Assembly: GCA_010093995.1 (NCBI GenBank)
Contig: ML992506.1
Coordinates: forward strand, 1,105,109-1,169,108
Reading direction: 5' to 3'
Source: Elsinoe ampelina
Lineage: Eukaryota
Length of the DNA stretch: 64,000 nucleotides
Position 1 is the first letter of the stretch. The number at the start of each line of letters is the position of its first letter. Made by a program: the position numbers and the translations under genes. Below are positions 31,799 through 53,632 of the stretch, piece by piece. The notes under the pieces are model-generated. The model did no database searches, was not told the origin of the DNA, and saw only the letters and a program-made list of their open reading frames with translations.

Positions 31799-33018
31799 AT
31801 GGTCGCTCTTTCTTCTTTGCTGTTGACTGGTTCCATCCTCGGTGCTGTTTCAGCAGTACCAGCCCTAGGGTCGAGCTCGAAGCTTGACAAGCGCCAGCAG
31901 AGGATCAGGCAGGGTGAGGGCATCGGCCCTGATGGCTTCTTCTACACCGTCTGGGACGATGGCAACATGCAGCAGACTTTCACCAACCAGGCGAATGGAG
32001 CTTTCGACCTCACCTGGTCTGGTAACGGAGATGTTGTCGCCGGGAAGGGCTGGAAGGAAGGCTCTGATCGGTGAGTGATCATCACTGTGCGCTGAACGGT
32101 GACCAATTATTGATGGCATGCAGCAACATCACCTACAGCGGTACCTACACCACAGGTGGCATGAGTTTCCTCATGATCTACGGCTGGTTCGAGAATCCCC
32201 TGGTCGAGTATTATGTCATGGAGAACTGGGACGACACCTCCGATCCATCCAAAGATACTGACATGGAATACATCACCACACTCAACACTGATGGATCTGA
32301 CTACGATGTTTTCAAGAAGACCCAAGTCAACTGGCCTTCCATCATCGGTACAGCCACCTTTGCCCAATACCGCTCCGTCCGCAAGGGAGGCAGGCGTACC
32401 AGCGGCACTGTCCATATGGGTGCTCACTTCGATGCTTGGAGGGGCGCTGGCCTCACTCTCAACGAAGGACACTACCAGGTCGTGGCTGTAGAGGGTATGC
32501 AGGCAGGCAGTGACGGCAGTGCTTCCATCACTGTATCCCAGGAGAACTCGAATTCGCCGGCACCTGTGCTCGCTCCAAGCCCGTCTCCGGCCCCATCCCC
32601 TCAGCCATCCTCGGAACCATCCCCGGAGCCGTCCCCGGAGCCATCACCCGAGCCATCGCCGGAGCCCGCTCCCGCACCACCAAGCTCCTCCGCCCAGCCT
32701 GCGCCACCTGTCTCCGAGACCACCTCCGTCGAAGCTCCTCCTGCACCAACCTCTGAGCCTGTCCCAGCTCCGCCTACACCAACTCAAACTCAGCCTGCAC
32801 CGACTACTCCGGCACAGCCTCCGGTCATTCCCACCACGACTCAGTCCTCGTCCGCAGCACCTACACGTGCCTGGAAATGGTGGGGCCGCAAGCAACGCAA
32901 GACTCGCAAGAGCAGCACTGTAGCCGCTCCTGCCCCTACTCCACCTCCTCAGGAGAGCGACGTCGCCGTGACCACCACTGTCAAATTCGTCACAGTCTAC
33001 GAAACAGTCGCAGCTTGA
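31799..33018 (+). CDS. Secreted GH11 endo-1,4-beta-xylanase with Pro/Thr/Ser-rich C-terminal tail; intron 32071-32123
   Basis: Signal peptide, LDKR Kex2 site, VVAGKGW, YGW...PLVEYYVME (nucleophile Glu), TFAQYRSVR, VAVEG (acid/base Glu). Confidence 0.9.
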
Positions 33019-33534
33019 AGGATATGAGAATCACGAACAGAAAGATACGAAAATGAATTGCACTTGCATATTAGGAGTCATGACAATCAGATGCTGAGCA
33101 TAAACATGGATGGAGTCTCGGGGCCTTTCACTTCAATGCTCACCAGCGAGCTAGACCGACTAGCATACGTAGGCCGGTCCTTCAATGTGCTTTTTGAAGG
33201 CAAAATTAACATCTCTGCTTGAACAGACTATCGCCCCCTTCGTGCAACGTGAAACTTTGTGAAAGAAACGGCGTGAGATAGGTTGTGAAGTGGAATAGCC
33301 ACATGCAAGCCCTGAAAGCCCTGAAAGCCATAGCCGTTAGACTTTCCGCACGAGCCATGTGATCTCCTGACAAGCTCAGCCCTACGGGCCTGGAAGCAGC
33401 TGACTCAACGCTGTGTTCTTGAACCTTCGACATGTATTAGCAACCGCCGCAGACCGAGCAGCCAGGCAACGAGGCCTACGCGTACACGTTACTAATTACC
33501 GCCGGCGGACATATACCCTCCCTCTCCCGCCATC

Positions 33535-34461
33535 ATGTCATCTTCACACTTAGACCCTCCCGACCAACAAAGCTACACCAAAATGTCCGTCGGCGAGGTT
33601 GAAGCCATCGGCACTCACTGCCAGATGTCTTTCTGCCACCAGCTTGACTTTCTTCCTTTCCGATGCGACTCTTGCTCCGGCAAGTTCTGCCTCGATCATC
33701 GCTCAGAGACTGCACATTCATGCCCACAAGCTGGCGAATGGGCGCGACGACGAGCCGCCCAAAACAGCACTTCCTCGGGCTACACACCTTCCCCAAAGCC
33801 TTCCGTCCTGACTCATGAGAAGCAATGCGCCGAGCTCAATTGCAAGACCCTAATCGATACTCCGCGCATCCAAGGTGTGCAATGCGAAAAGTGTAATAGA
33901 CGGTACTGCCTCAAGCACCGCTTCGAAGAGGATCACGACTGCAAGAACCTTAAACCACTCGGGGCGCGACCACAACTTGAAGCACAACGGGAGAAAGGCC
34001 TTGCTGCGCTGAACAAGCTGAAAGCATGGGGCGCCTCAAAGAAAAGCAGCTTCACCGTGCCACAAACCAAGTCCAAAGCTGCAGCTGCAGCGCAAGTAAA
34101 AGCAACCGTCGAGCTGAAGCGTCTGGCCAAGGGGGACGACAAGGTCCCTGCTGAGAATAGGGTGTATCTGTATGTGGAGGCGGAGAAGGAGACCACGACC
34201 GCCAAATTGCAGAATGGAAAGTTCTTCTACAACAAGGAGTGGACGGTAGGGAGAGTGTTAGATCTGGCCGCAAAGAGTCTCCAGGTGCAGAATGAGAACA
34301 ACAGGGGTGCTGGCGAGGAGAGGAAGTTGAGGATCTTCCATGTCGAAGGAGGCAGGTTGTTGGAGTTCTCGGAGAAGCTGGGAGTCGCGGTGCAGACTGG
34401 GAACACGATCGTGTTGCTCCGAGGCGTGGGGCCCGCGGCGCCAGATCTGATTCAGATGTAG
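33535..34461 (+). CDS. CUZ1: AN1-type zinc-finger protein with C-terminal ubiquitin-like region (Cuz1/ZFAND1-like)
   Basis: Two AN1 fingers (IGTHCQ..CHQLDFLPFRC...FCLDH and C..C.RRYCLKHR). C-terminal motifs AKGD and WTVGRVLD. Confidence 0.8.
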   Translation: MSSSHLDPPDQQSYTKMSVGEVEAIGTHCQMSFCHQLDFLPFRCDSCSGKFCLDHRSETAHSCPQAGEWARRRAAQNSTSSGYTPSPKPSVLTHEKQCAELNCKTLIDTPRIQGVQCEKCNRRYCLKHRFEEDHDCKNLKPLGARPQLEAQREKGLAALNKLKAWGASKKSSFTVPQTKSKAAAAAQVKATVELKRLAKGDDKVPAENRVYLYVEAEKETTTAKLQNGKFFYNKEWTVGRVLDLAAKSLQVQNENNRGAGEERKLRIFHVEGGRLLEFSEKLGVAVQTGNTIVLLRGVGPAAPDLIQM

Positions 34462-35423
34462 CTACGGTGGGAAGGACATGCATGACAAAAGAGGATTCAT
34501 TTGGTGGCCAGGAAGCATAGCGAGGCGTTGCAGCGTAAGATACCCACCATAGTCATGGCATAGCCATATTGGACTTTTGTTACCATGATCAAACAGATGT
34601 ACTCCCCCGCTGTGCATGTGACATGTGGAAGAATTTGGCATGTGAAGTTGCACGTGAGAAGTGGCGTTCCGGCCTCATCTCGTAAGCACCTCATCTGCTG
34701 CACTTCCCACCACTATATCGACACCAGGAGATCCGCCCTACGTGGTATGGGCTTCTGGGACTCTTTGAACCCATTCCACTACCCAGTGGTGCCCCTCAGC
34801 TATGCTAACACAGCACATTCATGCAAGACATGCCTTCCATGACCAGATCCATCTGCTACATATCATGGTACGTTGCACCATTGCTCTTGCATACACATCC
34901 TTCCATACACTCTTTTTCTGTCTTTTTGTCCACGTTCCAGACCTACTTCAGGCCAAGAAAGATCTACCTACAGAATGCATATCACCTTCACGTCGTTACC
35001 TCATTTCTCCATTCCCCCCGGACTTCCTTTGCATATTGGACATGTACTGTACTCAAGTCCTATACGTCTCTTGAGCTAGCAATATGATGGCGCTTCACCC
35101 GCTGTCATCTAGATCTGCTCGACGAACCCGCGGAACGAGCGGAGTTCACCTACACACGAGCAAAAGGCACAAGGCGTCCTACACAAGTGATACTTTCACA
35201 ATGCCGATTCGGTACGCAAAGAACATATCTCTCTGATGCACATGTCAGCTCCCTAAATACTGCTGCTGCTCGTCCTCGCCAGTTCCGAAAAGGAAGGCTT
35301 CGGAGCCGCGATTCGAGACCAGTCAACCACCGGCCAGGTCCGACCCTTTTTTGCTATTAGTTATATTGTTTTTACCCCGCTCTGATGATCTGGAAATCAT
35401 CTGAAAACGGTGACTTTCATCAG

Positions 35424-35583
35424 GGCCTAATGGGTAAGCTCTGCCTCTTCCGCTCTCACCGGTCTCGGCCTAACACTTCCTAGTCTAGGCGTATGATTCG
35501 TCCTTCGGGTAACGTCCTTCGGGACATCCCCAGTGCTCTGCATTGATTGGACGAGGTCCCGCGTTCAATTCGCGGTTAGGCCC
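35424..35583 (+). tRNA. tRNA-Pro(CGG), exons 35424-35433, 35484-35509 and 35548-35583 (72 nt), with a spliceosomal-type intron 35434-35483 and a canonical tRNA intron 35510-35547
   Basis: Acceptor stem GGCCTAA/TTAGGCC plus C73. Pro-type D arm TGG|TCTAGGCGTATGAT. Anticodon stem CGTCC/GGACG with loop TT-CGG-G^T. Variable loop AGGTC. T arm CCGCG-TTCAATT-CGCGG. Downstream TTTCTTTT. Confidence 0.88.
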
Positions 35584-35591
35584 TTTCTTTT
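35584..35591 (+). terminator. Pol III-type T-rich terminator of the tRNA-Pro gene
   Basis: TTTCTTTT immediately follows the discriminator base. Confidence 0.6.
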
Positions 35592-37078
35592 GACCCTGAG
35601 ATGGTGTCGATAGCATCATTTTTGAGTCCGCAAGTGGAGGTTGAAGTGGGAGGTGATACGGAGAGATGTATCACGTGTGGCAAGGCCACGGGTTGTTCCA
35701 GCATCACGAGCTCAACGAGATGAGCATCAGCAAAGACGGAAGCACCAACAACAGGCATCGAAAGCCGCAAGTAGCATGTGTCGCCGTCCGCAGTCGTTGT
35801 CGAGGGTAAATTTCGCGTGGCAAATTTTCTCATATTCTTGAACGACGGTGAGCAAATCCGCCCTCCGGTCTCTTGCATGACATCGATCGCGGAGACCATA
35901 ATGATCACGCACACAACATTGCTTGCAGCAATAGTCTCGCCGCCGTTGCAGACATCTGACTCTTCTCGACGATAAGGGCTGTGATGCATATGTCGGGTTT
36001 TGCTCAAGCATCTACCGACCCACGAAGGCAATACAGCAACAAAGAGCATCATTCGAATCCCGGCGACCAGTAATGCCAGAGGAATCTAACGATATCGTTA
36101 CTAGATCCGTACTTTGAGATTGAAGCGGACAGACTTTTACAACGGGACCGTCTACAATGCCCGAAAGGTCCGGTTGTATACGACATCGCTGCCATGCGCA
36201 CGGTCAATCAAGTTGGTCTCACTTGGTCAGAGTTCCGCACGAATCCAATGGAATGTGCGCTCTGCCTCTTGACGGACGCAGAAGAAGCTCACAAAAGCAC
36301 CTCCATTGACTCGTTCTCGCCCAACCGGGGTCAAATCTCTCAAACTGAGGCACACTTTGGGCGCACTTGGGTGACTGAGCGTAAGGCTGATGCAAATATA
36401 CTCTCTCGAAACCAGCAATCACCTGGACTTGCGGGTCCAATATCTGCAACCTTTCCAAGGCTGCCCAGCCAAGCTCGAACTCAGTAGCAGAGGCTTACGT
36501 GGAAATTCATAGTCTGGGTCCCTAGCTTCATCCAACAGACTATCAAGTGATCTCTGATGATTGGCTTCGATACCAGAGTCTTGTCCACCAGCAGCTAGTA
36601 TCAAGGCCGGGAAATTGCAAGTGAAGATCTTATGACACTGGTATTTCAAATCAACCCGGAATGTCCTCGCCGAGTTTGATTATGCAGCATCCCGGGTCAT
36701 TCAAGCTCGAAGCATATACCGACTAGGATAGCTACTCATCCATTGATGTGAGAGGCTCCATCAGACAGAGTACGACCGAGTTCTAGAATGCTAACCATGG
36801 CCCGGCTTATCAGTGGCGACCTCTTGGTGGTCATCCACTTCGCAATTCAGCTTCTCCTATATCTTGAAGCGTAACATAGAGTTGCACCCGATATACTATC
36901 GTCCCACTCGGATCCGACGCGGCAGCATATTTCACACAAGAGATGCATTTGATAGCTACTCTGACTATTGAATTCACTTGAGGTGTGCTTCCGTGATCGA
37001 AGTCATAAGTCCAGCGCCTCGGAACAACTATTCTCAAATTTGTATCCATGACTTCCTTCTGGCCACCATACTGCGACA

Positions 37079-40000
37079 ATGAGGTGGCAAGCAATTGTTC
37101 TACTATTTCAGTCTTCATATTTACTCCGGGCCTCTTGCGACTCCGGCAAATCGGACAACGATTATGAAGTACAGACCCATGTCAGTGAATTACCACCGGC
37201 TCTGTATCCAAGGCATGCGCTCGACCCATCATACGGCATTCCGAACTATCGAGTTATTAATGGCTATATTGTGGACTGGTCTCCCTTCGAACTACCCCTC
37301 GGCTTTGAAGATGCTTTAGACAGGCTCATCGGCCGCTTCTGGAGAGGTGAATTGAGTTTCATAAAGGCGTTCGGGTTCCTCCAGAAGTACAGCCACTGGG
37401 CACAGCATCAGATCATCGAGTATTTGTACCGAAGAGATGTTAAACGAGCGGTACGTCGCTGGCCCCACCTGGACCTAGAAACCGTTCATTGGTTTGAAAG
37501 GGTGGCTAAACATCACGATCCGGAGAGACTACTGGATCCTGAAAAACGTTGGAGCCGCCTTTCCCCTAACACAGATCTTTGGGCACCGGCGAAGGAAAAG
37601 CTGAGGAAACTCGAGAAGTACGAGAGATTCCCAGCTCGGACCCGAGCCAGATTAGCCCAGCTGGAGGAGGAGTATCGTGAGGCGTTTCTAGATGCACTAG
37701 GACAGGATTGGACGCATATCACCGACGCCAAGTTCAAGAACAGATTCTTCAACCCGCATGATCCGCTACTTAAACCAAATCCCCCAGATAGGCTTTGGGA
37801 CGTGCGAGATTACTTCAAAGCTGATCCGGAGATTCCAAGGCCACCAGACCCGAGTTGGCCGGATCCGCCGACTCATCCTGAGCCCCCTGAACCTCTTGAG
37901 CCGCCTGAAACGCCATGGGGCGACCTCGATGATCCTTTCAAGCCTTCAGCTGAAACGTCGATGGATGATGAACCACCGCAAAATTCCGACGGTTACCGCG
38001 AGGAGTTCGATGAATGGGACTATCCGGGCGCCGAAGAAGATATACCTACCTTCGACGATCCCTCAGTTGACCCCGAACAGCCTATCGATCCAGATTCTCT
38101 AGTGGGCGATCCCCCAGTCGATGTCGAGCCTCCTATCGACTCCGAATCTCCTATCGACTCCGAGCCTCCTGTCGACTCCGAATCTCCTGTCGACTCCGAA
38201 CCTCCTTTCGACCCTGAACCTCCTTTCGACTCCGAATCTCCTGTCGACTCCGAACCTCCTTTCGACCCTGAATCTCCTATTGACCCTGAACCTCCTGTCG
38301 ACCCTGAATCTCCTGTCGACCCTGAAACTCCTGTCGACCCTGAATCTCCTGTCGACCCTGAACCTCCTATCGACCCTGAACCTCCTGTCGACCCTGAACC
38401 TCCTGTCGACCCCGAACCACCCGTTGATGTCGACCCCCCTATTGAGCCCAATCCTCCAGTCGAACCGAAGCCTCCAGTTGAACCCAAACCCCCTCGGCCT
38501 GGGAAACCTCCGCCACCTTCGCCAGAAGCAAAACCAGGGTTTTTCAGACGGTGGTTCGAGAAGTTCAAGAGCTTTCTTCGGAAGTTTCGTAAGGGAGCTG
38601 CTCCACCAACATCGATGCCCAAACCAGTGCCTGATCGTCCGGTACGCCCACCTCTCAAGCCTCCTGGACCCGTTCCTACGATCAAACCACCTGCCGACCC
38701 GAAACCAAAACCAAAACCAAAACCGCGCCCGGGCGAAAGGTTTCCTTACGATATCAAGCCGAAACTACCACCTATCATGGAAGAGGAGCTTGCCGAAAAG
38801 TTTGGACAGATCGGTGCAGGTACTGATGTGATCGAGGCCTTCCCACAACTCGCCGGATTAGGAGAGGAGCTCCAAGCGAAGATTTTGTACTCTCTGGGAG
38901 CATCAGACAACCTGGTGATCAAGGTTGCCGGACGACTCGGGAAGAAAATAGCGATCAAAATCATCAAGACCGTCGCCCGGATCATCGGTCAGAATGTGCT
39001 GATGGCAATCTGGGACTACTATACCGTCAACTTCATGGCCGAGCTCGACGCGATCCTTACGACAATCGACATTGTCACGACTGCAATGATGATCATCGAT
39101 TTGATTCCATATGACATGGGCATATGTGACGCCGCAGCACAAACGTGCAGAATCGAACGCAAGCATCATCCAGGGCATTTCCATGTCCACGACTGTGGAC
39201 CACACCACCAATGTCACTACACTGGTGATCGGTGCGGTCATCGCTTCATGCCGCCGCATCGGACCATGTGCAACTGGCATAGACACGAGATCTATCATAT
39301 GGTCACTGGTCATGGTCCTTGGAAGGAAATCTGGGATGACATTTTTGGCAAAGGATCAGATGATGACCCCGACAAATGGCATGACAAGACATGCAAAAAG
39401 ATGGCAAAGAAGAAAAAGGCAATGTGCGAGTTACAGCATACACCATGGTATTATTACTGCCGTGAGCAGCAAGCGCAAATCGACAAGAATGGAATGGGAA
39501 TCGAAGGGCCAGCACCAGTCATGGCCGCCCTTGCAGCTCGCAATGATGGACACGGGAAAGACCGACATGAGAGAGCCTGCCACGCTTACGCTCAAGCCAA
39601 CATTGATCGATGCAAGTATCAGGTAGATCAATGGCTGCCCATCTGCAAGAAGACTCGCAAGATCCTCGTCAAGATGGAGGCCGAGGCTCCTGATCCATCC
39701 AATACCCTCATCACGAGGAAGAAGCCATCTTCCACTTCGAGGCTTGAACCCAACACTACGATCCTAGAGCTAGGTACAACGGTTACCAACACCTTCACCA
39801 TCTCATACCCAGTGCTCAACCACGGCAACATGACCATGATGGCCAACACCACGATCATGACCTTCGCCACTGTGACAGATTGGACCATCAGCAATGGCAC
39901 CACCGTGGCACCCAAAACTACATCCTCCTCCTTCGACTCTCTCATCCACGTCAAACTCCCAGGCTGGCCCGACTGGCCTCCAAACGACCACTGCAAGCAT

Positions 40001-40909
40001 CGAGCAGAAGATCTTGAGCACGACCTCTGCCGGCCCATCGAACCTCACCTCCTCCACTCAGCCTGCAAAGCCGACGTCTGCTACTGGCGAGAAATGTGCG
40101 AGATCCGCCGCAAACGCGCCGTCGAGATGGCCGAGTTCGAAAAGACCCTGTGTAAGACGGAGAAGAAAGAACAGAAGCCCAAATGCAAACACTTACCCGG
40201 CAAGCACAACCACGAGAACAAACTTTGCAAAGCATACAACGAAGCTCAGGAACACAAGTGCAAAGCCCTCGTCATGGACAGATTCAGTACCACATTACCA
40301 GGGGAGCCCATGCCCCCGTCGCCCGGACGGAGGATCAGGTTTCCCGACTGGCCGAAGCATGATTCGCGTCACAGGTGTTCTCATATGAAAAGGCACCTGG
40401 AAAAGCACGTTTGTGACGAGCAGGACTTGCCGGAAGATTGGCATGACTATTGTGAGAAGTTGGCCAAGGCATGGTTTGAGGGTTGCAGGGCGGCGAGGTA
40501 TGGGAAGAATGATACGTGGTCGGTGTGGATGGGAGGTGATGGGATGGCGCCGACGGCGATCGGGACGGAGACGGAGCCGGGGACGAACACAGCGTTAGAA
40601 ACGGGGTTGGCGCTTGCGGGCATGGCATTTCCAGGGTCGTTGGCAGTCGAGGGGCTGATCACTGGGACGGACTCGGTGTCGTATCTGACACAGGAGACAG
40701 GGATGGTGGCTGAGGTCACGGCAGCGGCAACGGAGGGCGCCCTGCGGACTGCAGAGCTGACTCCGACGGGTTCAGAGCTGCAATCTGGACCTTCGGAGAC
40801 TGGCGCGACATATGGAGTGTTGGCAGCGAGTGAAATGCTGCAGGATGGAGAATCAGCATTGACGAGTGGAGGGGCGTCATCTTTGGCACGAGAGACCGGA
40901 GATGCGTGA
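37079..40909 (+). CDS. Orphan 1276-aa putatively secreted protein: acidic Pro-rich repeats, hydrophobic helices, His/Cys-rich helical repeats, N-glycosylation-rich Thr segment
   Basis: Single 3.8-kb ORF from ATG with a hydrophobic N-terminal signal-like peptide. No family recognised. Confidence 0.75.
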   Translation: MRWQAIVLLFQSSYLLRASCDSGKSDNDYEVQTHVSELPPALYPRHALDPSYGIPNYRVINGYIVDWSPFELPLGFEDALDRLIGRFWRGELSFIKAFGFLQKYSHWAQHQIIEYLYRRDVKRAVRRWPHLDLETVHWFERVAKHHDPERLLDPEKRWSRLSPNTDLWAPAKEKLRKLEKYERFPARTRARLAQLEEEYREAFLDALGQDWTHITDAKFKNRFFNPHDPLLKPNPPDRLWDVRDYFKADPEIPRPPDPSWPDPPTHPEPPEPLEPPETPWGDLDDPFKPSAETSMDDEPPQNSDGYREEFDEWDYPGAEEDIPTFDDPSVDPEQPIDPDSLVGDPPVDVEPPIDSESPIDSEPPVDSESPVDSEPPFDPEPPFDSESPVDSEPPFDPESPIDPEPPVDPESPVDPETPVDPESPVDPEPPIDPEPPVDPEPPVDPEPPVDVDPPIEPNPPVEPKPPVEPKPPRPGKPPPPSPEAKPGFFRRWFEKFKSFLRKFRKGAAPPTSMPKPVPDRPVRPPLKPPGPVPTIKPPADPKPKPKPKPRPGERFPYDIKPKLPPIMEEELAEKFGQIGAGTDVIEAFPQLAGLGEELQAKILYSLGASDNLVIKVAGRLGKKIAIKIIKTVARIIGQNVLMAIWDYYTVNFMAELDAILTTIDIVTTAMMIIDLIPYDMGICDAAAQTCRIERKHHPGHFHVHDCGPHHQCHYTGDRCGHRFMPPHRTMCNWHRHEIYHMVTGHGPWKEIWDDIFGKGSDDDPDKWHDKTCKKMAKKKKAMCELQHTPWYYYCREQQAQIDKNGMGIEGPAPVMAALAARNDGHGKDRHERACHAYAQANIDRCKYQVDQWLPICKKTRKILVKMEAEAPDPSNTLITRKKPSSTSRLEPNTTILELGTTVTNTFTISYPVLNHGNMTMMANTTIMTFATVTDWTISNGTTVAPKTTSSSFDSLIHVKLPGWPDWPPNDHCKHRAEDLEHDLCRPIEPHLLHSACKADVCYWREMCEIRRKRAVEMAEFEKTLCKTEKKEQKPKCKHLPGKHNHENKLCKAYNEAQEHKCKALVMDRFSTTLPGEPMPPSPGRRIRFPDWPKHDSRHRCSHMKRHLEKHVCDEQDLPEDWHDYCEKLAKAWFEGCRAARYGKNDTWSVWMGGDGMAPTAIGTETEPGTNTALETGLALAGMAFPGSLAVEGLITGTDSVSYLTQETGMVAEVTAAATEGALRTAELTPTGSELQSGPSETGATYGVLAASEMLQDGESALTSGGASSLARETGDA
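38126..38430 (+). repeat. Coding 18-bp minisatellite (gaacctcctgtcgaccct-type unit, encoding E(P/S)P(V/I/F)D(P/S)), about 16 copies
   Basis: Directly visible tandem array inside the orphan ORF. Confidence 0.9.
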
Positions 40910-49300: not shown

Positions 49301-52300
49301 CTAGTAAAACAAAAACGATACTCCTACACAACACTAGCACTCTATAGCGTTCTAGTTCTAGAAGCTATAAGGTATAGAACTAAACTATACTACCTACAAT
49401 AAAGAGCTTCTCACTATCATAGAAGTAGCGCAGCACTAGCGCTAATACCTACTTAGCGCTACTACTCTAATTAAAGTCCTCTCTAACTATAATAACCTTA
49501 GGTATTTCCTAACTACTAAGAAGCTTTTATAGCGCTAGGCCCGCTACGCTAAGGTACTAGCGTAGTTCGATATTATTATTTAGTACTATAGTAGAAAGAC
49601 TAACCCGGCTAATAGTCTATTACGTAGGCCTAACTACTATAAGTATAAAGAAGATATATAGGAAGAGTACTATATATTAGTTCCTCTCTTAGAGTAAGTA
49701 TTATAAATACAAAGCGAAGGAGTTATACCTATATCTATTATAGATAAGAAACCTAAGGCTAGTAGAGCCTAGAAAGACAGTAATAAAGCTAGTATAGCTT
49801 ATATGCCTTAAACTACTCCCTAATATAACGCGCTTATATAATTCTAGCGTGCCTCTAGAATAGCGCCTATAAGTCCACCTATTACCTTAGGAGCGCTATA
49901 GCTATACTAAGAAGAGTTAGAGCCTCTAGAGTAAGAAGGGTAGTATCTAGAGAGCACTTATATAAACCTCTCTCTAAGCTTAACTAGTAATATTAAATTA
50001 GAACAATATACGCCTACCCTAGTATCCTAGGACGTACTACTACTCGCCTAGGAAATAATAGAGAGCTAAGGGCATAAAGACGGTATAACGCCTATATAAC
50101 TCTAGGACACCTCTAGTAGGAAGCCTACTATAATTTTAGACTAGAGTTAGTAGATTACGCACCTTTACGCTACGTAAGTACTAGTAGACGAGACTATATA
50201 TACCTCTTCTACTTCTACGTCGCTCTAGGACCTTATCTATATAGTATAGTAAAGGGACGCCTTTACTTATAGTAAGAAATAGAAACTTCTAAAAGAGAGA
50301 ACCTTAACTAGTAATAGTACTACCCCTAAGTAGAGCCTATCTAGTAATAGCTTACTCCAGAATAGAGATAGAGTATATATCCTAGAAGAAACTACCTTAA
50401 GAGTAGAGCTTATATAGCACAATTATAATAACCCCTTAGGGGGTCACTTTAGCTATATAAAGACCTACCTTAATATAAGGAGGAAGTACTAGTAGCTAGG
50501 TATATCTATCGCTACGAAAGTGTATATCGAGCGCTACGATAGCTACTAAAGATATAAGGTAACGTAGTATAAGCCTTATAGCCTCCTATAACCCTTACTA
50601 ATTCCGCCTATACTCGAGGCCTTATAACACTAGTTACTTAATTTTGTTACTAGCTTACTCTCGGTAGAGCTCCGGCCTAGTGTTATTATAGACACAATTG
50701 TCGTATATGTCTATTACTTGTCTAAGTTTAGCATCTATATACTAACGTTAACTAAGCTTAACGCTAGAGACTTTACTAATCTATTTAAAATAGACATTAT
50801 AACGTTATTCGGAATGCTAAAGACACTAGTCTTAGATAGAGAGTCTATCTTTATAAGTAAATTCTAGAGTGCGCTATACTAGCGCTAGAAGGCGTAATAT
50901 AAGCTTAGTACTAGTTTCTATCTATAGATAGACAGCTAAACTAAAAGGCAAAACTAGACGCTAGAGTAGTACCTATACTGCTTTATTAACTATCACTAGA
51001 TAAACTAGCTATACTAGGTTAAGTAGGCGTAATTTGTGTATAATAATATGTATTAAGCGTTACTATATACTACGCTAGTATAGTTCTTATTTATATAGAA
51101 GATATGCCTACCTAATAATATTAAGGCGCTAGCGTTACCTAGCTATACGCTAGCGTATAACCCGTCGGTCGATAACTAAGTATAATCTATTACTAAAACG
51201 TGTATAGAGCTTACCCGACACCTATATAAAGCATAGAAAGACTAAGCGCTAGTCTATAATAGAGGTCAATAAGTAAAAGTCTTCTATAATAGTAACGAGG
51301 TTATACTTAGCACTAAGAACCTTCGTAGCGCTAGACCTAGCTATAAGCTATTAGCTAAGTATATTAGCCCGTTTATAATTGTATAACAAATTAGTACGTA
51401 GGTATATAAGCTATACTTACTAGACAAAATAAAGCTAATCTATAACGTCTTTAACATTGTACTACTAGAGCTATATAGGCGTAGTAAGAGTATACACCTA
51501 CCGCCCCTAGAGGTAGAAGAGCAGGAAGAATACATTATTAAACATATCCTTAGTAAGAGCTATACTAGCACCCCGAAGGTACTATACTACCTAGTAAAGT
51601 AGCAGGGTTACTCTATAGAAGAAAGTATATAGGAGCTAGTAAAAAACCTTATAAATACTAAGGAATTACTATATAAATACGAGGTAGCTTAGTATAAGTA
51701 TAGTACTAGCTAAATACTCTAGATATACTTAGGATTAATAAGTTAAAGGTACAAATTTTAAAGTAAAGAGTACCTAGGCGTAGTACTAGATTAGCTCGGA
51801 GTATTATTAGCTTATATAGAGAGAATACTAGCGTAGCGAAAACTATAGAATTATACTAAAGTAAAGAGAGTATAGTATAGACGTAGCGCTCTAGCCTTCC
51901 CTACCTTAACTATCTATATTATCTACCTTAGTCTTATCCTTATTATCCTCCTTAACACTATTAATATACCTAGTTAGCGCCCTCGTAGCGTCGTTAATCA
52001 CCTATATAGTAGTAGCTTACTTATTCTTAGTAACTACCTATAAGAAAGTTAGCGTAGCTTAGGCGTTATAGGGGCGCGCTTCTAGACTTATATAATAGGC
52101 TAAAGCCTTAAGTATAAAGCTAGTATTACTAATTATACCTAGGCGTAGCGCCTTCGCTAGCTACTTAGTGTCGACTTTAGAGGCGAAGAGCGTAGTAATA
52201 GCGCTATTATAGCATAAAGAAGTTATACTATTACTATTACTCTTATTAACTACCTTACTCTTACTCTTAGTATTAGACTTACTTTACGCACGCTTAGCGC

Positions 52301-53632
52301 TAGCCTTCTTATATATATAGTTAGTATAGGTAGTAATCCGGCGCTTTAGAAGAATAATATTCTTCTTAGAAGTAGTAGCGTTATTACGGAGTAGTATATA
52401 TATAGTAAAGTATTCGTCCTAGAGCTCCTTAGTAGTAGCTTAATCCTTAGAGTCGAGCTTAGTAGGCTACTAAGGTTAGTATAAAGTAGGCGTAGCGTAG
52501 GCGTAGAGTATATCTAGTAGTAGTGTTTATTACTATAACTATAATAATTATAGCAGGTAGCCTTAGCCTTAGTAATCTAGTAGAGAAGATTCTTAATAGA
52601 GAGTATACCGTCTTTAAGCTAGAGGTACTTATTAATAGCAATAGCGTAGTATAAGTATAGTATAGAGTACTAGTTCTAGTTAGTAAAATCGCTCTTATAA
52701 GGTCTATAAAAGGTTAGCGCTAGCGTAGCGTAAGTACTATATATAATACTTACTCCTTAGGAACTTTAGGGGCTATAGTTATTAAAGTATATAAGTGTAT
52801 AGAAGGTAAGCTAGTATAGGGCTAGAATAATAAAGGAAAAAAAAAATTACTACGTAGGTGCTATACTAGGTCAGTAAATAAATAACTAAATAGACAAGCT
52901 CGATAGCTAGATCTATAGTAGCGTAGGCTTAGTATATACGCTAAGCCTCCCCTACTAGCCCTTAGGCTAGTAAGACCTAGTCTATACTATATAGTCTCTA
53001 AAATAGGTTACTAGTATAGTGTTAGACCTACGTAAGTATAGAGCTAGCGTTAAGTAGAATACTTACGTAAAGGAAGTATTATAAAGGAGAAAAGAAAGAA
53101 AGAAGAAAAAGAGAAGAATATATATCTAGCTCTAAGCTAAGACTAATCTAGAGAATAATAGGTAGTAGTATATAATAATAGGTAGATTCTTATATATAAA
53201 GATAATAACATAAGAGCGCTATATTCTATATATAAAGAATTATACTATTGTTACTATATCTAGTATATAAAGAATAGTATAGGCTACTATAGGCACGCTA
53301 TACGCGTAAAGAGTATACTACGCCTAAGAGGCGCTAGCGAGACACTCTTTTCTAGTTTTCTTCTATACTAGGTTTTCTAGGTTTTATTAAGGCTTATAGG
53401 CGTAAGGGCGCGCCCCTTAAAGAGGAAGAATAATTATAAGAACTAATGTAGTAAGTATACTATACTAGCTTACCCTAGAGATACTATTCTCCGTAGAAGA
53501 ATAAAACACTCCTTGTCTATAGAATAGATAGAGTAGAGATTAGTCTTACAATAATCGAGGGTATACTAGTATAACACCTGTTCTACTTCTATATACTTGT
53601 CTTTCTAGCTCTAATATCCTACCTTCGTTACA
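46340..53632 (+). mobile_element. RIP-inactivated Ty3/Gypsy chromovirus nested in the Copia; 198-bp LTRs at 46340-46537 and 53435-53632; TSD CTACT
   Basis: Gag CCHC remnant ~47640-47690, ALIDSGA ~47820, YLDDILIY 48801-48824, ETDAS ~49260, chromodomain YLVKWQGY..ESTWE ~51587-51635, PPT aaagaggaaga. Confidence 0.92.
51891..52776 (-). pseudogene. RIPed antisense accessory gene of the Ty3 element; 3 introns; about 245 aa with a Zn-cluster-like Cys pattern and acidic tail
   Basis: Introns 52704-52753, 52470(or 52467)-52513 and 52038-52091 have (g)taagt/(g)tatgc donors, ctaac branch sites and tag acceptors. The spliced frame is continuous apart from RIP-type stops. Confidence 0.65.

Follow-up and report, generated by a model that had tools for sequence, protein, structure and literature searches.

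Introns of nuclear tRNA genes have been described as lying at one site only, between positions 37 and 38 of the mature molecule (37/38), from which they are cut by a protein endonuclease without the spliceosome, as stated in the parts available to us of two accounts (PMC10275265; PMC12530127). In the second of these, as far as its text was accessible, the three nuclear intron types are called unrelated, and spliceosomal introns are assigned to the transcripts of RNA polymerase II (Pol II) (PMC12530127, 2025). Here we analyze a stretch of 64,000 nucleotides (nt) from contig ML992506.1 of Elsinoe ampelina (assembly GCA_010093995.1, forward-strand positions 1,105,109 to 1,169,108; called the window throughout), in which a tRNA-Pro(CGG) gene at 35424-35583 of the plus strand is interrupted not only by an intron at 37/38 but also, between positions 10 and 11 (10/11), by a 50-nt insert that has spliceosomal intron signals.

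Two groups of exceptions to the simple scheme are relevant to this locus. Non-canonical tRNA introns of eukaryotes were listed only for nucleomorphs and Cyanidioschyzon in the accessible portion of a 2014 review (PMC4090602). For spliceosomal introns in non-coding RNA genes, the consulted part of a 2018 review lists only U1, U2, U5, U6 and ribosomal RNA (rRNA) as hosts; introns of the messenger RNA (mRNA) type occur in U6 of many fungi, Schizosaccharomyces pombe among them, and in U1, U2 and U5 of Rhodotorula hasegawae, with up to four introns per small nuclear RNA (snRNA) gene and a lineage-specific presence (PMC5855946). The full-text literature that was searched, from which most subscription journals are missing, yielded no description of a tRNA gene with a spliceosomal intron, although an older report is possible; this agrees with the preliminary description of the locus, made from the letters alone, in which no described case was known. 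Three further papers contain, in the parts that were accessible, nothing more on spliceosomal introns in tRNA genes (PMC3978253; PMC11146597; PMC11782384).

We favor the reading in which the locus is an ascomycete nuclear tRNA-Pro(CGG) gene with a 50-nt U2-type intron at 10/11 and a 38-nt canonical intron at 37/38, the transcript of which would be matured by both the spliceosome and the tRNA splicing endonuclease (TSEN), and we consider this reading probable. That the window copy still yields a working tRNA is considered probable to the same degree, and can be held with more assurance for the class of genes described below than for this copy. As far as its sequence goes, the window gene is one case of a recurring class that is absent from the literature found.

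The tRNA-Pro(CGG) locus and related interrupted genes

Exon 1 (35424..35433, plus strand, as are all parts of the gene) holds the 5' strand of the acceptor stem (nt 1-7), nt 8-9 and G10, and its seven acceptor nucleotides all pair with 35576-35582. It is followed by the 50-nt GT-AG insert of the U2 spliceosomal type (35434..35483), which lies between tRNA nt 10 and 11 within the A-box region and carries the donor GTAAGC at 35434-35439, the branch sequence CTAAC at 35470-35474 (with A at 35473) and the acceptor TAG at 35481-35483; its boundary is ambiguous by 1 nt, since a shift of -1 gives an identical product. Exon 2 (35484..35509) supplies the remainder of the D-arm, with C18 at 35491, the 5' strand of the anticodon stem, and the loop with the CGG anticodon as far as G37. 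The canonical 38-nt intron of the TSEN type, assigned by ARAGORN to 37/38, follows at 35510..35547, and exon 3 (35548..35583) contributes nt 38, the 3' strand of the anticodon stem, the variable loop, the T-arm, the 3' strand of the acceptor stem and C73. The string, the coordinates and the two-insert layout given in the preliminary description were found base for base at 35424-35583, and the spliceosomal donor, branch and acceptor signals of the 50-nt insert are present where it had placed them.

No tRNA is called in the native window by ARAGORN (64 kb, with and without the intron option) or by Rfam, at the gathering score or at E<=10. After in silico excision of 35434-35483, ARAGORN calls a tRNA-Pro(cgg) with a 38-nt intron at 37/38. 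The prediction that excision at GT/AG restores a tRNA-Pro(CGG) was therefore reproduced by the program, as was the canonical nature of the second insert, and both scanners missed the native gene, as had been anticipated. The fully processed product is 72 nt long, with the discriminator C73 and anticodon and T loops of 7 nt each, and its 21 stem pairs are all standard except a T.T at 13:22, which is common to all related tRNA-Pro genes; the pair count bears out the proposed 72-nt cloverleaf with intact acceptor, anticodon and T stems.

When GT..AG deletions of 35-110 nt were made in silico on both strands of the window, 1 of 39,497 yielded a tRNA spanning the joint, and it was this locus; because of this count, chance is excluded as the source of the restored tRNA. 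Four control end-pairs gave tRNA calls at this same locus only, and neither the rest of the window nor the +/-600-nt flanks of the metagenome loci described below revealed a further hidden interrupted tRNA in the deletion screen. It could be argued that a random 50-bp insertion, or an assembly artefact, has struck a dead tRNA gene, and the C at position 18 and the lack of the insert in the contig of a relative (see below) would agree with this. Such an origin is extremely improbable in view of the single restoring deletion among the 39,497, the rarity of the strict intron pattern GTAAGY..CTAAC..YAG in the window (4 matches versus 0.78 expected), and the recurrence of the same architecture in 10 metagenome loci, with no match in 596 Gb of prokaryotic DNA. 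In addition, all sampled words of the stretch are contained in two DNA runs of the same organism, both of which may be its source. Three of the four strict matches are grouped at 51958-53066 on the minus strand. TATA and CGCTA motifs abound in their interiors, and the group may represent either a repeat or a single gene with several short introns.

Related genomes had been proposed as a place to look for tRNA halves split by GT..AG, and such genes were found in metagenomes. Contigs were scanned with a pattern composed of TGG, GTRNG, 33-63 free bases, YAG, and the D-arm and anticodon-loop motifs of tRNA-Pro, which returned 10 loci from about six uncultured lineages (L001; L002; L005; L003, L006 and L009; L004 and L007; L008 and L010). 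Prokaryotic genomes totalling 596 Gb did not contain this pattern, so the metagenome matches are not due to chance. All 10 loci are tRNA-Pro(AGG) genes with a GT..AG insert of 51-57 nt between positions 10 and 11, and they also carry a canonical 37/38 intron (18-38 nt). Beyond the splice signals, the window insert has no similarity to the inserts of these loci, and the isoacceptor at the shared 10/11 site differs as well, being CGG in the window and AGG in the loci; the use of one site in different isoacceptors suggests that the intron was transferred between tRNA-Pro paralogues or that this site is preferred for insertion.

ARAGORN called none of 11 native sequences, and 7 of the 11 after removal of the D-arm insert. 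The four that stayed uncalled (L004, L007, L008 and L010) have a second insert, with L010 truncated before the T-loop site. In L004, and in L007, which has the same sequence, this second insert is 57 nt long (GTGAGT..GCTAAC..CAG) and follows position 58; in L008 it is 60 nt long (GTAAGT..TTAAT..CAG) and lies between positions 55 and 56. In a blind scan of 7,085 deletions for each locus, tRNA-Pro was called solely around the T-loop sites of L004 and L008, and in both loci the GT..AG deletion is the one that gives back a 7-nt T-loop with TTCGA. L004, L007 and L008 are thus triply interrupted: GT..AG inserts lie both at 10/11 and in the T-loop, where the B-box sequence is split, and the 37/38 site holds a canonical intron. 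As for the surroundings of these genes, L001 and L002 have in common an upstream motif, CCATCAACAACAAC, about 20-35 nt before the tRNA 5' end within flanks that are otherwise unalignable, and this motif may be a conserved promoter or leader element. The flank of L001 shows only DUF924 clusters in Atlas, and Pfam detects DUF924 and S1/P1 nuclease in two of three flank open reading frames (ORFs).

Sequence identity was compared in 10 pairs among L001, L002, L005, L003 and L006, nine of them cross-lineage and one (L003/L006) within a single lineage. In the nine cross-lineage pairs, exon 3, which is free of the search pattern, is identical at 35-36 of 36 positions, and exon 1, seven positions of which lie outside the pattern, at 10 of 10. 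In the same pairs, identity is 57-81% in the D-arm insert, 43-79% in the canonical intron and 47-59% in the 100-nt flanks, which are essentially unalignable. The exons of L003 and L006 are identical, and the two loci differ at 2 of 51 positions in the insert and at 2 of 100 in the trailer.

Compensatory double changes were found among five distinct mature sequences at four acceptor pairs with their 5' partner upstream of the insert and at one T-stem pair across the T-loop insert; in the class overall, eight stem pairs show compensatory changes. Because the acceptor pairs that span the insert co-vary, exon 1 evolves as a part of the tRNA, and the insert must therefore leave the RNA. These comparisons indicate that the exons of the interrupted class are under purifying selection, with covariation in the stems, and it is very likely that the class is functional. 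For the window copy by itself, the single comparison that bears on exon selection is a contig of the metagenome run X5, which is described below.

Probable removal of the inserts

Of the 9 inserts, 8 contain a branch-like CTRAY, a signal on which the search placed no constraint, and its A precedes the 3' end by 10-12 nt (by 10 nt in the window); in the remaining insert, TTAAT is found 12 nt from the 3' end instead. When the interiors were shuffled, a mean of 0.88 inserts carried CTRAY, and none of 5000 shuffles reached 8. The two T-loop inserts start with GTRAGT and end with CAG, both signals being free of the search pattern, and the nine inserts are all 50-60 nt long. Judged by these signals, the spliceosome is likely to be the agent that removes the inserts in the class as a whole, a conclusion in which we have good confidence.

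Excision of the D-arm and T-loop inserts by a protein enzyme, either a relaxed tRNA splicing endonuclease acting with the ligase or an unknown nuclease, has a precedent in the ectopic D- and T-arm tRNA introns that are cut without the spliceosome in a few eukaryotes, according to the parts seen of two papers (PMC4090602; PMC3728597). The genes also resemble units of RNA polymerase III (Pol III) with 3' T-runs, and Pol III transcripts are unusual substrates for the spliceosome. This explanation is nevertheless very improbable. An endonuclease would have no reason to keep GTRNGY, CTRAY at 10-12 nt and YAG while the interiors diverge, and a length of 50-60 nt fits the spliceosomal introns of fungi, not the 3-24 nt of the nucleomorph inserts recorded in the available text of PMC4090602. 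The bulge-helix-bulge (BHB) motif was absent at product-compatible registers from seven D-arm inserts (0-3 of the 4 central and 0-2 of the 3 outer pairs), although this control is weak because the canonical introns of the loci are also without a strict BHB, as expected in eukaryotes. At register 0, the D-arm inserts of all seven distinct genes form 0-1 central and no outer pairs, and the motif is also absent at this register from the two T-loop inserts (central 2 of 4, outer 1 of 3).

Other intron types were considered as well. A BHB-type tRNA intron was rejected, as the motif is not formed at product-compatible registers. A canonical TSEN intron is not compatible with the position of the 50-nt insert, which is 10/11 and not 37/38; the ruler mechanism of the eukaryotic tRNA endonuclease would not reach 10/11 or 55/56. 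Self-splicing introns of group I or group II were rejected because 50-60 nt is too short and Rfam gives no match. With regard to a mobile repeated intron, no second copy of the insert was found in the 64-kb window (best match 13 nt, E 0.03). A selection against internal T-runs was not significant, runs of at least four T being present in 1 of the 9 inserts versus 1.98 expected (P 0.31).

The maturation of the window tRNA by the spliceosome and TSEN could proceed as follows. Transcription of the plus strand would start just 5' of exon 1, and at least a part of it would read on into a longer transcript with an ordinary GT-AG intron. The spliceosome would excise the 50-nt intron, with U1 and U6 on GTAAGC, U2 on CTAAC, A35473 as the branch nucleotide and the second step between TAG and T. 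The tRNA splicing endonuclease, together with the ligase, would take out the 38-nt intron; the ends would then be trimmed by RNase P and RNase Z, and CCA would be added. In this scheme we infer the spliceosomal cutting, the order of the steps and the polymerase that makes the productive precursor.

Transcription and the state of the window copy

Four sequencing runs were compared as assembled contigs; none is recorded as RNA, and where contigs are called RNA-type we infer it. In run X3, a contig of 365 nt (depth 42.8, no mismatch) covers 35483..35847 of the plus strand and includes exons 2 and 3 with the canonical intron still unspliced between them, followed by a 264-nt trailer. The X3 assembly forks at 35847, one branch being the genomic continuation and the other consisting of letters that match 36105-36133. 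The same transcript thus has a 257-nt GT..AG intron (GTGAGC...CTAAC...TAG) at 35848..36104, of which X3 holds spliced and unspliced forms; its splice signals are the same as those of the 50-nt insert, and it is far longer. The GT..AG polarity of the joint at 35847/36105 assigns it to the plus strand, which is therefore transcribed across the tRNA and spliced nearby; these data suggest a Pol II-like transcription, at least in part. The end of the X3 contig at 35483, the last base of the insert, was not counted as a fork between spliced and unspliced forms, as it concerns one contig from one study and graph clean-up is also possible.

Features of the related genes suggest a different polymerase. 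A run of T5-T10 lies 3-13 nt past the 3' end in all six distinct metagenome genes, and these T-runs point to Pol III. TATAWW is found at -32 to -62 in 6 of 7 distinct genes, namely the window gene and five of the six metagenome genes; in the window it is represented by a TATA-like element (TATATT) at 35362..35367 of the plus strand, 62 nt 5' of the mature tRNA end, which may have a role in transcription. Downstream of the tRNA, a 1285-codon ORF with its ATG at 37079 (stop to stop 37052-40909, plus strand) has no Pfam domain at E<=0.01, and it may be a gene with a long leader that contains the tRNA locus.

The insert may also be a real spliceosomal intron in a tRNA gene that is dead. The exons would then be the first exons of a Pol II transcript toward the 1285-codon ORF, within which the intron would have arisen and with which it would be spliced, no functional tRNA-Pro(CGG) would be made, and the intact stems would reflect the recency of the event. 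The plus-strand RNA-type contigs, which run from 35483 through the weak terminator past 36100 and are spliced at 35848-36104, are in line with such a leader, and the absence of a long ORF from 35484 to 37078 is in keeping with a long leader or with a non-coding RNA. The C at position 18, a terminator of merely T3CT4, and the insert-less contig of a relative together with an uninterrupted tRNA-Pro paralogue, which are all taken up below, agree with it as well. We nonetheless regard it as unlikely, since the 21 stem pairs are intact apart from the family-typical T.T at 13:22, the canonical intron and the discriminator are intact too, and the insert occupies the very site used by a class with selected exons, which would be unexpected for a random gain in a leader. 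Besides, RNase P and RNase Z are still able to free tRNA-like units that are embedded in Pol II transcripts.

Several observations weigh against a window gene that is still matured by the spliceosome and TSEN. Its D-loop reads AGGCGTA versus AGTGGTA in six related lineages, so the C at position 18, already remarked upon in the preliminary description, is real by comparison; G18 is near-invariant in tRNAs. The terminator-like run directly after exon 3, TTTCTTTT (T3CT4, 35584..35591, plus strand), is weak compared with the T5-T10 of the related loci, and a T5 run follows 36 nt downstream, at 35619-35623. The split A box, and in L004 and L008 the split B box, are hard to reconcile with TFIIIC-dependent transcription by Pol III. 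The junction of exon 1 with exon 2 of this gene occurs in no contig of the runs compared, and X3, X4 and X6 have no contig over 35105-35482. Within the class, gene conversion from intact paralogues could in principle maintain the identity of the exons, and the D-arm inserts of L001, L002 and L005 are homologous and hence mutually non-independent. The donor GTRNGN is present in 9 of 9 inserts (GTAAGC in the window), with the reservation that GTRNG and YAG of the D-arm inserts in the 10 loci were imposed by the search and so are non-independent.

To these points are added the insert-less contig and the intact paralogue. The metagenome run X5, which is DNA because its longest contig measures 272 kb, contains one contig of 199 nt (depth 2.8; aligned at a threshold of 80%) that matches 35389-35432 and 35483-35571 and skips exactly the 50 nt (GT..AG, cut +1); its canonical intron contains 6 additional letters and 2 substitutions. 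A close relative's locus, or a paralogous locus, is therefore without the 50-nt intron, which is dispensable there and was probably gained or lost recently. Contigs of X3 and X6 contain an uninterrupted tRNA-Pro paralogue, its anticodon unread, in the window's organism. Compared with window positions 35483-35596, the paralogue differs in the acceptor and anticodon stems, and 12 letters take the place of 43 in the window, an indication that its canonical intron measures about 7 nt; its flanks are distantly similar to those of the window, suggesting an old duplication of the locus. Taken together, C18, the weak terminator, the insert-less relative and the intact paralogue fit a recent intron in a declining gene, or a Pol II leader.

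The maturation of tRNA by the spliceosome may be conserved and selected in a fungal group, with one or two U2-type introns splitting both promoter boxes and the supply of tRNA coupled to the splicing of mRNA. This proposal is possible, though we put it forward tentatively and with some doubt. As the boxes are split, it would require that the precursor come from TATA-driven, TFIIIC-independent Pol III transcription or from Pol II, after which it would be processed first by the spliceosome and next by the tRNA endonuclease. The genes upstream of the tRNA in the window are ordinary fungal genes on the plus strand, encoding a GH11 xylanase (32068-33018) and a ZFAND1-like protein with AN1 zinc-finger and ubiquitin-like (UBL) domains (33496-34461), for which the nearest Atlas cluster is ascomycete.

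Significance and comparison with known systems

The analysis suggests that some tRNAs would need the spliceosome to mature. If this is true, tRNA joins the short list of non-coding RNAs that host spliceosomal introns, given as U1, U2, U5, U6 and rRNA in the part consulted of PMC5855946, and the case for such introns arising from the closeness of the host RNA to the spliceosome's active site becomes weaker. It would further become a question how tRNA genes with split A and B boxes are transcribed, and the tRNA gene sets of some fungi would be under-counted, because ARAGORN and the Rfam model both miss the interrupted genes. The presence of the intron in the window and its absence in a close relative would be a dated instance of a non-coding gene precisely gaining or losing an intron.

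The snRNA introns of fungi are similar to the insert described here in being short GT-AG introns with a canonical donor, branch and acceptor, otherwise unconserved, in the gene of a small structured non-coding RNA, and U6 is moreover a Pol III gene, as set out in the accessible sections of PMC5855946. They differ in that the tRNA host stands outside the spliceosome, that the promoter boxes A and B are split, and that a separate tRNA splicing reaction is also needed. Reverse splicing at the catalytic center, the usual explanation for the U6 introns, is inapplicable because tRNA is not a component of the spliceosome. Spliceosomal introns are also said to have been found in the nuclear ribosomal DNA (rDNA) of ascomycetes, reportedly by Bhattacharya et al. 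in 2000, as cited in PMC5855946 and PMC11782384. These share with the present case the spliceosomal type, the location in a stable-RNA gene transcribed by a polymerase other than Pol II, the ascomycete hosts and the patchy presence; the host RNA and the polymerase are different, rDNA being transcribed by Pol I.

Among the introns of tRNA genes themselves, the canonical 37/38 intron removed by TSEN and ligase matches the 38-nt intron at 35510-35547 and the second intron of all related loci, and the 50-nt insert differs from it by its position at 10/11. Bacterial and organellar tRNA genes can harbor group I and group II introns, which are likewise of a non-endonuclease type and are sometimes placed in the D or T arm. 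Those introns are self-splicing ribozymes of several hundred nt with conserved folds, and the inserts described here are far shorter. The tRNA introns of Cyanidioschyzon merolae and of nucleomorphs are comparable in their occurrence in the D and T arms besides 37/38, in their number of up to three per gene, and in being missed by scanners, according to the parts available of Soma et al. (2013; PMC3728597) and of the review PMC4090602. In the same parts of these sources, those introns either depend on a BHB or measure 3-24 nt, and the tRNA endonuclease cuts them, whereas the inserts in the tRNA-Pro genes described here are without a BHB, measure 50-60 nt and carry GT, CTRAY and YAG (PMC3728597; PMC4090602).

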